Source: a virus
Taxonomy: Duplodnaviria; Caudoviricetes
IMG/VR virus record: IMGVR_UViG_3300014205_000015
Location: 13,731 to 77,730 of that record
Length of the DNA stretch: 64,000 nucleotides
Direction: 5' to 3' (one strand)
Shown piece by piece: positions 3,685 through 19,329 of this stretch; the first letter of the stretch is position 1, and each line of letters opens with the position of its first letter. The translations under genes and the position numbers were made by a program. The notes beneath the pieces were generated by a model. That model did no database searches and was not told where the DNA came from. It was given only the letters and a program-made list of their open reading frames with translations.

Positions 3685-3722
3685 TATTCTTTCCTCCGGG
3701 TAGGGTTTCAACGGGTTTAGCT

Positions 3723-3779
3723 GCCTCGTCAGGTCATCCCCACTACGGGATAACTACGCCCACAAGTGAGCGTTTCGGC
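3723..3779 (-). ncRNA. type II hammerhead ribozyme
   Basis: GCC-GAAA-stem III (6 bp)-GUA-stem I (8 bp)-CUGACGA-GGC; complete catalytic core; intergenic. Confidence 0.9.
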
Positions 3780-3780
3780 T

Positions 3781-4520: not shown

Positions 4521-4782
4521 ACAAAGTCACGACACCAGCCGCCGCAGCAGCACTAATCACGCACAGCACAGCCCAGCCCGCGAATTGCATAATCTCGTGT
4601 AAGACGCCGAATTCCCGTAGTTGCCCATCGTATTCTTGCTCGATTTCCAGGTGGCATCGCTGGCAAATACGAATACGCCCCCAGTAGTACGCGCCTGCTG
4701 CGCCTAATGGCTCTCCGCATCGACAGCATTGTTCATGTGGAGATGGGGTGTAAGACTCACTTTGCCACTTTGGATTGTCCAT
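4510..4782 (-). CDS. small protein with CxxC motifs and a C-terminal membrane anchor
   Basis: CCRC...CQRC followed by a hydrophobic C-terminus. Confidence 0.6.
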   Translation of the reverse strand: MDNPKWQSESYTPSPHEQCCRCGEPLGAAGAYYWGRIRICQRCHLEIEQEYDGQLREFGVLHEIMQFAGWAVLCVISAAAAAGVVTLFVN

Positions 4783-4796
4783 TGGTTTGCTCCAGG

Positions 4797-5021
4797 CTAT
4801 AGCTCGATGTCTAGGACATTGCGAAACGTATCCTTAACAGCCTCGATGAAGTCGGCAGCCGAATTAGCGGCTACTGATTCTTCTGGTTCATACGCGCCGT
4901 CTTCGTTGTACGAAAGGCGCTCGGCAATTTCCGTCAGCGCCTTTGCGAGCGTCAATAGTGACTTTCCTTGTATGTGATGCTCAGCGTCGACGATTTGATT
5001 GAATTCCATAATCTTGTCCAT
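4797..5021 (-). CDS. hypothetical protein
   Basis: 74-aa ORF with AAGGGAG RBS. Confidence 0.65.
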   Translation of the reverse strand: MDKIMEFNQIVDAEHHIQGKSLLTLAKALTEIAERLSYNEDGAYEPEESVAANSAADFIEAVKDTFRNVLDIEL

Positions 5022-9890: not shown

Positions 9891-9964
9891 GGAGTCGGTA
9901 GCTCAGGGGTAGAGCAGCGGGGCATGTAATCCGCGGTTGATGGTTCGAATCCGTCCCGATTCCA
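9891..9964 (+). tRNA. atypical tRNA (Thr-UGU-like, 8-nt anticodon loop)
   Basis: GGAGTCGG/CCGATTCC acceptor, GCTC/GAGC D arm, GCGGG/TCCGC anticodon stem with loop GCATGTAA, GATGG-TTCGAAT-CCGTC T arm. Confidence 0.75.
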
Positions 9965-10577: not shown

Positions 10578-10816
10578 GCATACGTGTTACGGCGGTGTTG
10601 ACTTGCGACACATGCGGTCGGGAATGTGGCTTGGAGCCAGTTTCTAAGGCTGGAGAGGCGACTGTCATTGCGCAACGGTTACGAGTCGCAGCGGAACATT
10701 GTGGTTGGAAGACTATTAGCCGTGGTAGATTCCATACTCCGACGCATTACTGTCCTTGTTGCCAGGACAAGCCGATGAAACCTGTGCCGCGGGCGAAGTG
10801 CGATTCGGGATTATGA
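10574..10816 (+). CDS. small zinc-finger protein
   Basis: CDTC...CPCC; GTG start overlaps the upstream TGA. Confidence 0.6.
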   Translation: MSIRVTAVLTCDTCGRECGLEPVSKAGEATVIAQRLRVAAEHCGWKTISRGRFHTPTHYCPCCQDKPMKPVPRAKCDSGL

Positions 10817-10852
10817 CCCCTGCACTCATAGGCTCATAAAGCCCGCCAGTCG

Positions 10853-11134
10853 CTAGATAAACGTAGTATCGCCTACAACGACAGCCACCGAGTCCTGGCT
10901 GTAGCTCTTGCGGCAGTTCGTAATGGCTTCCTGTAGTTCATTAACCTGATTGCCAAGAATCTCACAGACCCAGCAGGCGTTCTGCCACGGGGCGTCCCAG
11001 TCAGACCCACCGCAGAAGTGGACGCGATATACATTGCTCCGAACCACTAGGTTCATCGACGCGGCGAAGTTAGCCCAATCGCCCTGAGTAAGCTTGTTGT
11101 CGGAATTTCCGATTTGAACTACCACTGTCTTCAT
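10853..11134 (-). CDS. hypothetical phage protein (QIGNSDNKLTQ motif)
   Basis: 93-aa ORF. Confidence 0.7.
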   Translation of the reverse strand: MKTVVVQIGNSDNKLTQGDWANFAASMNLVVRSNVYRVHFCGGSDWDAPWQNACWVCEILGNQVNELQEAITNCRKSYSQDSVAVVVGDTTFI

Positions 11135-15053: not shown

Positions 15054-15539
15054 ATGGCTATTGTTGAAAAAGCAAGAGTGAAATGGGCAGATAAAGAGGC
15101 GGCAATTCGGTCGCTCGAGTCTGGCGGTAAAATCGACCCACTGGATTTGATTGAAGCCGCTCGCGATCCTGAACATCCGTGTCACTCTGATTTCACTTGG
15201 GACATCGACCAAGCGGCTGCCGAACGGTGGCGGGATCAAGCCCGTGAGTTGATTCGCTCGTGCAAGTTTGAAGTGCGAGTGGAAGACGTAGGCAGCAGGG
15301 TTTGCATGTACGTTCCATCTGGCGACGAAGATGCAACATTCGTGTCACTACCAAAGATTCGCAGCAAGGCTCAGGCGTCTGCGGTTGTTCTAGCGGAGGT
15401 TGCCATGTTGCTTGGGAATGCTTCTCGGGCATACGGGATAGCGTTGTCGAAAACGAACATTGTTGGCGCTGACGTTGTTGTTCAGTTGAAAGCGATTCGC
15501 GAACTGGTGGCTACGCTGAAGGCTGAGCTAGAGGATTGA
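15054..15539 (+). CDS. partner protein of the RAMP/array locus
   Basis: LIEAARDPEHPCHSDFTWDIDQAAAERWRDQARELIR motif; lies immediately upstream of array 1. Confidence 0.8.
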   Translation: MAIVEKARVKWADKEAAIRSLESGGKIDPLDLIEAARDPEHPCHSDFTWDIDQAAAERWRDQARELIRSCKFEVRVEDVGSRVCMYVPSGDEDATFVSLPKIRSKAQASAVVLAEVAMLLGNASRAYGIALSKTNIVGADVVVQLKAIRELVATLKAELED

Positions 15540-15545
15540 TTCATT

Positions 15546-15863
15546 GGTCAAGGAATGTCGGGGCGTGGTTCGGCGTGGTGTTTCAGGTTTCGGTATGCTT
15601 GGGCGGTCATGGAGAGGTCGGGCTAGGTGCGCTCTTGCGAGTCGAGTCGAGGCGGTCGAGTCCGTGCGGGGTGCGGAGTGCTCTGGTTGGGTCGGTCCAG
15701 GTTGGGTTCGGCGGTCGCGGTTAGGAATGGCGTGCTGCGGCGAGTCGGGGCTCGTTCCGGTTGGGCGGTCAAAGTGGGTCAAGGCTTGGTGCGAAGTGGT
15801 GCGTCCTGGAAAGGCGGTCGAGGCGGGGATTGGAGTGGCCCGTATTGGTCCGACAAGGCGGTC
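15546..15863 (+). repeat. pentamer-coded array 1: six units of GGTC+(NN-GGY-like)x8-11; putative guide RNAs
   Basis: Units start at 15546, 15605, 15654, 15713, 15767 and 15816; lengths 59, 49, 59, 54, 49, 44 (all 5n+4). Confidence 0.9.
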
Positions 15864-15951: not shown

Positions 15952-16716
15952 ATGGCAAAAGCATCTGGTGTTTTGGAAGCGATTGAAGTTGAACCACTAC
16001 GAGTTGGCAGTATGCAAGTCTGGCTGCGTGGTATCACGCCGCTGATCTGTAATCGATTGGCGGCAAAGGCACGGCGCGAGCTGTTGCTTCCGAAGGGACG
16101 AAAGTCGACGGCGGAAAAGCAGCAATCGCTGAAGCATGATCCGGTAGCTGAGTTCCGAGACAGCATGAATGTGCGATCTGGTGTTGGACCTACACGAGTA
16201 GTGTTTCCTGCGCCCGCAGTGAAGGGTTCTATGGCTACTGCCGCGCTGGAGACGAAAGGCACGAACAAAACGCAGATTGGTCGTTTGGTTCGTGTGGCTG
16301 GTTATTCACTGGATGTCTACGGAATACCAGAATTATTCATGGCTATTGTTCGTTCGGCGGACATGGCTCGGACGCCCGACGTTCGGACGCGAGCGATCTT
16401 GCGCGAGTGGTGCATGCCTGTTACCGTTCAGTACGTCAAGCCGCAGATGTCTGAGCAGGCTATTATGCAATTGCTTGCCAACGGCGGAATTATCATCGGA
16501 GTAGGTGATTTTCGTCAAGAAAAAGGCAAAGGCGATTTTGGCTGCTACGAGGTCGTCACCGAAGCCGATTGTAAGGACATTATCAAAAATGGCGGGTTGA
16601 AGCAGCAAGACGCTGCGATCAAGACTCCCGTCTGCTTCGACAGTGACACTGAAGAACTTTTAGGCTGGTTCCAACAGGAAGTTAAAGTTAGAGGAAAGGG
16701 AGAACTGGTTGCCTAA
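15952..16716 (+). CDS. RAMP/Cas7-like RNA-binding protein (Vipr-like effector)
   Basis: N-terminal VWLRGITPLICN strand and C-terminal Gly-rich loop GIIIGVGDFRQEKGKGDFGCYEV; flanked by pentamer arrays. Confidence 0.75.
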   Translation: MAKASGVLEAIEVEPLRVGSMQVWLRGITPLICNRLAAKARRELLLPKGRKSTAEKQQSLKHDPVAEFRDSMNVRSGVGPTRVVFPAPAVKGSMATAALETKGTNKTQIGRLVRVAGYSLDVYGIPELFMAIVRSADMARTPDVRTRAILREWCMPVTVQYVKPQMSEQAIMQLLANGGIIIGVGDFRQEKGKGDFGCYEVVTEADCKDIIKNGGLKQQDAAIKTPVCFDSDTEELLGWFQQEVKVRGKGELVA

Positions 16717-16725
16717 CTGTCAATT

Positions 16726-17376
16726 GGTCGCGGAGAGGTATGGCAACATAAGTCACGGTCCGGCGAGTCATGTCCGGGCGGTCATGGAATGGTTGGGCAC
16801 GGCACCATATGGTATGTCGCGGCTTGGCGTGGCGGTCCCGGTTGGGTCCGGTAAAGCTGGTCGGGGCGGGGTGTTGCGAGCCCGGGTTTGGCGGTCGGGG
16901 TACGGTTCGGCACGGCGGGTCGGAGCATGGAATGTTGCGGCGGTCGCGTCGAGGTGCGGTGCGTTTGGGCGAGTCCAGGCGCGTCGGGGTATGGTTGGGC
17001 GGTCGAGGTGAGGAAAGGCTGCGCTAGTTCAGGCGAGTCATGGCACTGGCGGTCGCGGTATGTCCTGACTAGTCATGTGAGGAAAGGCGAGGCGGGGCGG
17101 TCGAGTCGGGTCTTGGAGAGGTTCGGTCCGTTGCGGTCTGTCCGGGCGGTTTGTCAAAGCTAGGCTGCGCGTGGCGGTCATGGTGACGAGAGGCTGGGTA
17201 TGGTACGTCGCGGCGGGTCTGGGGCCGGTGAGGCGGTCAAGATTCGTCAGGTCGCGGACAGGCGGGGCGGGGTACGCTTAGGCGGGCCTAGTCCTGGCGG
17301 TCGCGTCGGGGTCTGGAGTGGCACGGTCGGGCAAGGTGAGTCGAGCTCTGGCGTGGTGAGTATCGGCAAGCCGGTC
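16726..17376 (+). repeat. pentamer-coded array 2: twelve units of GGTC+(NN-GGY-like)n; putative guide RNAs
   Basis: Units start at 16726, 16780, 16834, 16893, 16942, 17001, 17051, 17099, 17148, 17176, 17235 and 17299; three units (17001, 17051, 17148) carry 1-nt irregularities. Confidence 0.9.
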
Positions 17377-17415
17377 GTGATTGACTGTTAAGAGGTCATG
17401 CAGCACAATTGCTGC

Positions 17416-19329
17416 ATGACCTCTCCTTTTTTTGATTTAGTCCCAAAAGACCCAATTGAGAATCTCCGTTGGCGCATTCGTTGCCGCGAGCGTGCATTGG
17501 CTGATAAGCGGTTTCGAGACTCGCTATATCAAGCGTGCATGAGTGATCTTTGTTTCTGGATGGCATTTGCCTGTTGGGGATACGACCCGCGAGCCCGCTT
17601 CAAGATCGTTCCATTTGTACCCTATCCACATCAACAAGCTGTGTTCGTGGCGATGGATGAAGCCATAAGCACTGCCGAACGTGAAGAACGATCGGTCGAC
17701 GTGATCCTGGACAAAAGTCGGGCTCAAGGTGGATCTTTTGGATATCTTTGGGTCGACCTTCGGCGCTGGCTGCGCGATCCAATGTTTTCAGCAGGTTTTG
17801 TTACGAAAAATGAAGATTCGATTGATTCAAAGAGCGACTCATCGACGGTGCTGTGGAAAGTGGCATGGGCGATTGAGCGATTGCCTTTCTGGATGAAGCC
17901 CAATTACGAACGGCATCTTGGTCAGCACACTTTCATTAACAACGACAACGGTTCGTTATTGCGAGGATACTCTGCAGGGCAAGACGTGGCAGCCGGTGGC
18001 CGTACGACTGTGTTCACAGTGGACGAAGCTGGCGCGAGAGACTTCGTTTCAGGTGGCAAAGACGAAGCGGTTCAGGAGTCTATTCAAGACGTGTCCAACT
18101 GCATTCGCATGGTCTCTGCTCGTTACGTGGATGCAGGTGTCTTTCACGAAGCCTGCGAAAACCCAGACACGAAAAAGAACGGTATTCATCTTATACTGGA
18201 CTGGAAAGACCACCCCGCTCAAAGCAAGCACTCTTACATTGTGCGAGAGGGAATCGCGGTTGCCATAAAGCCGGAAGATCAAGCGGCGGTCACGGAATAC
18301 CACCGAAAACACCCTGACCTGCGATCCCGACTGGAAAGAAAAGGATTTAAATTTGAAGTGGTTGTTCGCAGTCCGTGGTACGACTCTCGATGTTTGCGCC
18401 CGACAGCCACCCCGCGACTGATAGCTTCGCAGCTCGACCGCAACCCTCGCGGAGCAGTAGGTAAAGTTTTCGCATCAGACCTCTTGGACCGCATGAAGCG
18501 AGAGCACTGCAAGGGTCCAGTTTGGGTGGGCAATCCAGTATTTGACTCAGAAACCTGCAAACTAACGGGATTGATTCCCAGGGATGACGGCTTGCTGAAA
18601 CTGTGGTTCAAGCCGGGCATCGACAACTCACCGCCGCTGGGACCGTTCACCGCGGGATGCGACATCGCTTCGGGTGGAGTTGGGGCGTATTCCTCAAACT
18701 CGGTCATAACGGCGCTGGACGACAGAACCGGGGAGCAAGTCTTGGAGTACACGGTCAAGGGACTCGAGCCACGACCGTTTGCACGCCGGGTGGTTGGGCT
18801 GTGCATGTGGCTTAGAAACGCACTGCTTGGCTGGGAGGATTCCGGGGTGTCTGGTGGTTTTGCTAAGGAAATCATGGAAGTTCTTTATTATGGTTCCGTG
18901 TTCTATCGGGACGTAAACCAGCTCGGTTCCCAGAAGAAAAGCCGCAAGCCTGGCTGGCCGTGCCGTGACGCAGACAAAGCGGACGATTTTGAGCAAATGG
19001 CGCTGGCGATGGAGACTGGGAAGTTCGTTCCGCGTTCCGAGGAAATGATTGTCGAGTGTTCTGAATATGAGTGGGACGGCACCAAAATCATTCACGCACC
19101 GTCGAAAAACAAGGGGGCGGCTGACAAGAATCACGCCGACCGCGCTATAGCAATGGCAGGCTGTTGGAAGGTCTTTAGCACCGATAATGCAACCCGTAAG
19201 ATTGACACAGACGTGGAAAACGGTCAGAATCCAGAGTACGGCTCGTTTTTATGGCGAGAGCAGCAAGAGCGCCGGAACGTGAAAACGGGTAGCCCGAAGT
19301 TCGGGATTAGGGACATTATTGGACGCTAA
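17416..19329 (+). CDS. terL: terminase large subunit
   Basis: DKSRAQGGS Walker A-like, VDEAG Walker B, GCDIASG and HADRAIA RNase H-fold acidic motifs; lies upstream of portal and capsid. Confidence 0.9.
   Translation: MTSPFFDLVPKDPIENLRWRIRCRERALADKRFRDSLYQACMSDLCFWMAFACWGYDPRARFKIVPFVPYPHQQAVFVAMDEAISTAEREERSVDVILDKSRAQGGSFGYLWVDLRRWLRDPMFSAGFVTKNEDSIDSKSDSSTVLWKVAWAIERLPFWMKPNYERHLGQHTFINNDNGSLLRGYSAGQDVAAGGRTTVFTVDEAGARDFVSGGKDEAVQESIQDVSNCIRMVSARYVDAGVFHEACENPDTKKNGIHLILDWKDHPAQSKHSYIVREGIAVAIKPEDQAAVTEYHRKHPDLRSRLERKGFKFEVVVRSPWYDSRCLRPTATPRLIASQLDRNPRGAVGKVFASDLLDRMKREHCKGPVWVGNPVFDSETCKLTGLIPRDDGLLKLWFKPGIDNSPPLGPFTAGCDIASGGVGAYSSNSVITALDDRTGEQVLEYTVKGLEPRPFARRVVGLCMWLRNALLGWEDSGVSGGFAKEIMEVLYYGSVFYRDVNQLGSQKKSRKPGWPCRDADKADDFEQMALAMETGKFVPRSEEMIVECSEYEWDGTKIIHAPSKNKGAADKNHADRAIAMAGCWKVFSTDNATRKIDTDVENGQNPEYGSFLWREQQERRNVKTGSPKFGIRDIIGR

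Follow-up and report, generated by a model that had tools for sequence, protein, structure and literature searches.

A phage VIPR array with a guide that may be directed at the 3' half of a tRNA gene

The VIPR locus and its guide arrays

VIPR (Viral Interference Programmable Repeat) systems were described in three 2026 preprints (10.64898/2026.04.26.720920, 10.64898/2026.04.26.720927 and 10.64898/2026.10.15.759431). Vipr is a minimal RAMP protein that polymerises on a guide RNA, the vrRNA, in which GGY triplets alternate with NN dinucleotides to form pentamers; these NN positions base-pair with double-stranded DNA and leave out one target base in three, and rival mobile elements are thereby silenced. 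The preprints report filament assembly, binding of double-stranded DNA through an R-loop triplex, transcriptional silencing and the use of either strand, and cryo-EM structures are available (10.64898/2026.04.26.720927).

The locus analysed here lies in a 64,000-nucleotide stretch of DNA (the window, from whose first letter positions are counted) taken from a virus record of IMG/VR (77.7 kb, complete, 54% GC) whose ends are direct terminal repeats; the locus was found near-complete in a single metagenome, from a landfill. The locus is a VIPR system (Table 1), because its arrays repeat an NN dinucleotide and a G-rich triplet with a period of five, its RAMP protein is homologous to the SUSP1 Vipr protein and has a Cas7-like fold, and the 1-nt skip rule holds for its guides. 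The tract of array 2 (~650 nt, G-rich and non-coding) has a period-5 autocorrelation of 0.44, compared with 0.26 in a control region, and 18 units in total parse as GGTC followed by n repeats of NN plus a G-rich triplet, those of array 2 ending in GGC. An Rfam scan of the array gave nothing relevant, and a coding reading of the array was rejected because it contains no long ORF. The profile of the 254-aa protein family matched PDB chain 36pp_D ('SUSP1 Vipr protein', E=1.1e-6), its AlphaFold model (pLDDT 77) matched Csm3/Cas7 RAMPs (Foldseek E ~1e-4, probability 1.0), and more than 1,400 homologues were found. The 161-aa candidate vap protein, encoded upstream of array 1, is conserved, with 118 homologues; searches for a protein family and for a PDB match by sequence or fold returned none. 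In relatives of this phage the pentamer grammar is retained and the NN content has changed. A search for a close cultured phage relative found none, and terL, used for host inference, was not found in 301 Planctomycete genomes.

Table 1 Features of the VIPR locus in the window, and tRNA-like genes near IS1-family transposases on other contigs
Feature	Location	Strand	Remarks
161-aa gene, candidate vap (accessory)	15054..15539	+	Upstream of array 1; phrog_15946
vrRNA array 1	15546..15859	+	6 units, grammar as in array 2
vipr gene, 254-aa RAMP protein	15952..16716	+	Between the two vrRNA arrays
vrRNA array 2	16726..17372	+	12 abutting units, GGC/GGTC junctions, without conserved 3' tail
vrRNA unit (guide 17099)	17099..17147	+	GGTC + 9 pentamers, each NN + G-rich triplet
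Intrinsic terminator-like hairpin (15 bp) + T run	17391..17434	+	Closes array 2, just before/overlapping the annotated terL start
terL (large terminase)	17398..19329	+	Outside the VIPR system; relatives' alleles apparently spelled by the last two guides
tRNA-like gene	L025:5624-5709		Near IS1-family transposase
tRNA-like gene	L008:5268-5359		Near IS1-family transposase
tRNA-like gene	L017:4077-4171		Near IS1-family transposase
tRNA-like gene	L023:6664-6753		Near IS1-family transposase
tRNA-like gene	L083:about 4728-4816		Near IS1-family transposase

Several local features of the window deserve separate mention. Units 17001 (50 nt) and 17051 (48 nt), named like all guides here by their first position, are each one base off the 5n+4 length rule, and unit 17148 begins with GGTT and holds only five dinucleotides; these irregularities, all within 17001-17175, may mean that the array has decayed here or that it is processed differently. 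The terL ORF has its first ATG inside the terminator-like hairpin, and the true terL start is probably further downstream than 17398. The hairpin itself would be in keeping with expression of the vrRNAs. Arrays interspersed with ribozymes have been published for VIPR, and at 3715-3780 on the minus strand, outside any pentamer array, Rfam finds a type II hammerhead ribozyme with a score above threshold (50.6 bits). The sole tRNA of the phage, at 9891-9964 on the plus strand (Rfam tRNA, 45 bits), has an 8-nt anticodon loop (GCATGTAA) for which ARAGORN calls a 4-base anticodon; it may be frameshift-suppressor-like or Met-derived.

The skip rule was tested on the terL guides, where a gap of one base scored higher than gaps of zero or two and higher than shuffled guides. 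Read against the phage's own terL, guide 17235 matches in codon phase at 19/24 NN bases and guide 17299 at 22/28. These two guides, the last of the array (17235-17372), agree at ~79%, a little short of the 80% cut-off, with window positions 17713-17832 in terL, where the Walker A region and a motif downstream of it are encoded, and the differences between guides and own terL include Ser and Arg codon-family switches. The data fit a reading in which both guides would be aimed at the terL of relatives and the phage's own copy has been recoded; the Walker-A guide had no perfect match in IMG/VR. Self-matches were judged against the published VIPR self-targeting threshold of 80% NN match for the 17 full-length guides, unit 17148 being too short to score and left out. 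The highest self match, 83% for unit 16893 (15/18), equalled the maximum reached by shuffles (p=0.065); next came the two terL matches at 79% and 78.6%, and no self-targeting at an NN match of at least 80% was counted.

Two further guides point to rival phages. Guide 16834 (16834-16892) spells PCP[KN]CGGVDRF and matches at 22/22 in 19 IMG/VR contigs (L105-L123), where ~0.01 matches would be expected by chance; all 19 matches are in frame and lie in the zinc ribbon (PCPNCGGVDRF) of ORFs that reach ~650 aa where the contig is complete, which we read from this motif as putative primases, in phages of mostly ~48% GC. Guide 16726 (16726-16779) spells ADMNKTPD[IM]R and matches at 20/20 on vipr genes of two phages (L106:3257 and L115:3351) that also carry the guide 16834 primase match. 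These rival vipr genes are 43% identical to the vipr described here, and the phage's own vipr differs at the motif, in what looks like VIPR-against-VIPR targeting with self-avoidance. The array would thus appear to be a working weapon against rival, VIPR-bearing phages.

The unit at 17099 and a tRNA 3' half

Guide 17099 has a clean grammar, with nine regular pentamers and a GGC end. Its letters are GGTC GA-gtc GG-gtc TT-gga GA-ggt TC-ggt CC-gtt GC-ggt CT-gtc CG-ggc, which yield the NN string GA GG TT GA TC CC GC CT CG; an earlier note on this DNA, made from the letters of the window, had given both the coordinates and the dinucleotide string exactly. [quoted passage not shown] On a serine-type, class II tRNA (GGAG...CUCC-G73) the decoded NN bases span positions ~48-73, from the T arm through the 3' acceptor strand to the discriminator base, and the 3' end of the guide is the last base before CCA, discriminator base 73. 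Within the T loop the guide fixes T54 T55, G57 A58 and T60 C61, with GG and CC flanking, and its dinucleotides TT, GA and TC satisfy the T-loop invariants (T54 T55, R57 A58, C61). The earlier note had called the tRNA fill-in self-consistent, which is stronger than the letters allow: of the T-stem pairs only one (G51-C63) is fixed by the guide, and the rest of the fill-in is free choice.

A homologous unit, GA GG TT GA TC CC AC TT CG, is kept in relatives L030/L031 (= L129/L130), whose Vipr is 89% identical and in which most other units differ; IMG/VR held no homologous guide units beyond these two. The changes GC>AC and CT>TT (G66>A and C69>U in tRNA numbering) are transitions, after which acceptor pairing would persist as U7-A66 and G4-U69. 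Within its own phage genome guide 17099 had no matches at up to 2-3 mismatches (two or fewer over the whole genome), with a best self score of 13/18.

In 0.87 Mb of phage DNA the strict core of the T arm, GG.TT.GA.TC.CC (ten bases), has a frequency of 1.1e-6 per position, and the product of the arrays' own dinucleotide frequencies gives 7.6e-7 for the same core. By chance it would be met at ~1e-4 for 18 guides in this phase, at ~6e-4 over all phases and strands and, by rough estimate, at a few per cent over several hundred guides or more. We therefore consider the T-arm core improbable by chance. The acceptor match beyond the core adds only modest weight, because, with tRNA genes numbering in the millions, a few perfect extensions are expected by rough estimate. 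No other clear tRNA-like guide was found in a set of 217 distinct guides from the Vipr family, and a loose T-arm test gave three hits compared with 1.4 in shuffles, which is no enrichment.

Matches in tRNA genes and at provirus ends

Scans for exact 18/18 matches returned 4 viral, 24 genome and 39 metagenome matches, numbers of the same order as the chance expectation for 18 specified bases. The matches are of two kinds, a scatter over apparently unrelated ORFs and intergenic DNA, and a coherent tRNA class. The earlier note would have counted as refuted had no tRNA gene of plausible hosts or phages matched the full gapped pattern; real tRNA 3' halves do match it. On the viral side, a gene at 10794-10878 on the minus strand of G001, a 45.5-kb viral contig of 61% GC, matches at 18/18 and lies within a cluster of 27 tRNAs; Rfam assigns it to tRNA-Sec (50 bits), and by reading its anticodon loop is GCU (Ser). 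In genomes and metagenomes, nearly all perfect matches of the tRNA class belong to one family of tRNA-like genes (86-98 nt), found at 18/18 in five Planctomycete genomes and in 15 of the 39 metagenome matches. In its alignment the acceptor helix is 9 bp and the T stem 3 bp long, the D and anticodon stems show compensatory changes, the variable arm is long and base 73 is G; most anticodon loops read CUUAUAA, and scores on the Rfam tRNA-Sec model are 30-34 bits, which is sub-threshold. Allo-tRNAs are reportedly tRNA-Sec-like, with 8/4 or 9/3 acceptor/T-stem geometry. The perfect-match family shares the 9/3 geometry with them, a likeness by fold alone, and a literature search on allo-tRNA in Planctomycetes yielded nothing useful.

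The tRNA-like gene is present in several copies per genome, and in five of five contexts examined (Table 1) an IS1-family transposase gene of the same orientation follows it at a distance of a few hundred bases; an ImmA/IrrE-DUF4411 pair stands on the other side of the tRNA-like gene in two of the five. The family may be a mobile element carrying its own odd tRNA. One copy was also seen on a 93-kb viral contig (L222). In the phylum the family is rare, with no T-arm-like match in 300 sampled Planctomycete genomes. The variant guide of the relatives had three matches in IMG/VR, chance-looking and none tRNA-like, and in 300 Planctomycete genomes it had no tRNA match and one non-tRNA match at one mismatch.

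A last scan of IMG/VR, with the T arm filled in and the first dinucleotide left free, found 19 contigs. In 12 of these ARAGORN called complete tRNA-Ser genes (GCU, GGA or UGA) with 16-17 of the 18 NN bases matching. Together with the GCU loop read in G001, which Rfam classes as tRNA-Sec, these genes bear out the earlier guess of a tRNA-Ser type. Other contigs of the scan carry tRNA-Ser 3' fragments at provirus ends: in L224 a 3' fragment of the 16/18 class (26-48) sits at the contig end with a tyrosine integrase (212-1324) 160 nt away, and in L214 a tRNA-Ser 3' fragment adjoins an integrase (1478-2707). L216, L217 and L212 hold fragments without a 5' half, and downstream L216 has the same flank as L209 and L223, in which the gene is complete. 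The neighbours in L219, L218 and L212 are endolysin genes. In most of the 12 tRNA-Ser genes and in the provirus-end cases inspected, the mismatches fall in the 5'-most dinucleotide of the guide. The proviruses with matching fragments are mostly of 57-67% GC, with one at 44%.

tRNA-gene 3' ends are established integration sites of temperate phages and islands, and the identity block at such attachment sites usually runs from the T loop to the discriminator base. The string decoded from guide 17099 covers the same span, and IMG/VR proviruses end in matching fragments. From the 3' fragments beside integrases at provirus ends we infer that this class of tRNA-Ser 3'-half sequence is a real attachment core of temperate phages, in keeping with the role the earlier note had given to tRNA 3' ends. 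Its further proposal, that the guide serves to block integration or excision, found no such backing: no other guide of the array matches the contigs with perfect matches, and no tyrosine integrase was found near the 18/18 tRNA-like genes in the five Planctomycete genomes.

Candidate targets and comparison with described systems

In the mechanism that we propose, Vipr protomers would polymerise on the RNA, burying each G-rich triplet and presenting each NN, as published for VIPR and as we infer here; the NN bases would then pair with double-stranded DNA under the 1-nt skip rule, and once bound the filament would block transcription or access to the DNA. The target could lie on rival mobile DNA or in the host, and the candidates are the tRNA cluster of a rival phage, the IS-linked tRNA-like gene and the tRNA-Ser attachment core flanking integrated phages. 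Bound there, the filament could obstruct the tRNA operon of a rival, cover an attachment core or achieve nothing useful.

We lean, with limited confidence, towards a natural target of tRNA type for guide 17099, i.e. a gene of the tRNA or tRNA-like kind or a stretch copied from its 3' half, because the core is improbable by chance, because the guide ends exactly at the discriminator base and because the two guide changes in the relatives would keep acceptor pairing. The preprints keep the most prevalent target type, a rule that would here choose the tRNA class because the only recurrent class of match is tRNA-like; as a rival target, no recurrent in-frame gene family was found except a tail fibre of AT-rich phages. 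Several observations weigh against a tRNA-type target. Published natural VIPR targets lie overwhelmingly in coding sequence, where the skipped base falls on the wobble position; the other guides of the array had no matches in the perfect-match contigs (the G001 tRNA cluster and the G002 tail fibre); no second clear tRNA-like guide was found among the 217, the variant guide had no tRNA match in IMG/VR or the 300 Planctomycete genomes and the tRNA-like family is rare; and the guide read as codons gives a plausible peptide, [DE]G[FL][DE]SPALR. An alternative interpretation, which we hold to be rather unlikely but still to be taken seriously, is that the guide is directed at a rival element's gene for a protein containing this peptide, with the wobble base skipped and the T-arm look coincidental. 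It would agree with the sister guides, which match coding sequence in frame in every case where a match was identified (primase, vipr and terL), with the mostly coding targets of the preprint, with the variant of the relatives, whose changes as codons are conservative (A>T and L>L/F), and with a tail-fibre ORF (phrog_30742) in L001-L003 that matches at 18/18 in frame. However, the strict T-arm core has a chance frequency of ~1e-6 per position, and the tail fibre, the sole recurrent coding match, belongs to phages of 37% GC, compared with 54% here. The other in-frame matches lie in seemingly unrelated ORFs and their number is near chance; the one identified, a biotin carboxylase (L005), has nothing beyond the 10-residue motif in common with the tail fibre and was treated as a chance match. 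Nor does the rival phage family struck by the primase and vipr guides contain a match to guide 17099 at three or fewer mismatches (five records); tRNA genes were likewise absent from these five records.

Within the tRNA-type reading, a narrower form would have the guide occupy the tRNA-Ser attachment core (attB, attP, attL or attR), blocking the integration of temperate rivals or the excision of resident satellites and prophages. Such a Vipr filament would be an RNA-guided occlusion of a recombination site rather than gene silencing, and we regard this form as unlikely, although the 16/18 tRNA-Ser 3' fragments without a 5' half at provirus ends, with integrases in L224 and L214, speak for it, as do the end of the guide at base 73, where such identity blocks end, and the published action of the VIPR of phage SUSP1 against an integrated satellite. 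The mismatches in the 5'-most dinucleotide would also be compatible with it, as this dinucleotide would pair last according to the cryo-EM description. On the other side, the matching proviruses are mostly of 57-67% GC (one of 44%), the perfect matches in the five genomes have no adjoining tyrosine integrase, and none of the three VIPR preprints describes an occlusion of recombination; moreover, this phage has direct terminal repeats. Very improbable in our judgement is a guide without a useful target, either a decaying or drifting unit or a Vipr sink on an abundant host tRNA-like sequence, like REP decoys. The irregular neighbours on both sides, the multi-copy, IS-linked state of the tRNA-like family in its carriers and the decoy guides published for satellites would suit such a guide, but the grammar of the unit is perfect, it is kept in relatives with an 89% identical Vipr, and a decoy in the phage's own array would harm the phage.

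If a tRNA-type target is borne out, VIPR warfare between phages would extend to where and whether rivals integrate or excise, or would choke the tRNA supply of rivals, and natural guides would be exploiting the most conserved non-coding sequences available. The system itself is known and non-coding targeting is published, so that a tRNA or attachment-site target is a plausible, as yet unproven, new target class for a known mechanism; the word tRNA is absent from the main text of the three VIPR preprints. The view of the earlier note that the code is not limited to codons stands insofar as the code is positional and not codon-based, but it is not new, as REP targets have been published (10.64898/2026.10.15.759431). 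In that work, solo vrRNAs encoded by satellites direct VIPR to REP elements. Guide 17099 resembles them in that its best matches are conserved, structured, non-coding, multi-copy sequences and not a gene, but the REP vrRNAs are satellite-borne decoys against the VIPR of a phage, whereas guide 17099 stands in a phage's own array and matches a tRNA 3' half.

Set beside the described VIPR systems (10.64898/2026.04.26.720920; 10.64898/2026.04.26.720927), the locus differs in its triplets, which are GGT, GGC, GTC and GGA in place of the strict GGY of published VIPR, and in an accessory gene without a recognisable fold. Unlike type II vrRNAs, which have a conserved 3' tail, the units of array 2 abut and are tail-less, in what looks like the published 'staggered' layout (fig. 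S18). In other respects the locus is a clean, well-documented example of a tail-less VIPR array with guides matching rival primase and vipr genes, and it shares with the described systems a RAMP protein homologous to SUSP1 Vipr, arrays of G-rich triplets and NN dinucleotides flanking the gene for that protein, the 1-nt-skip code, and guides against rival phages, including their vipr genes.
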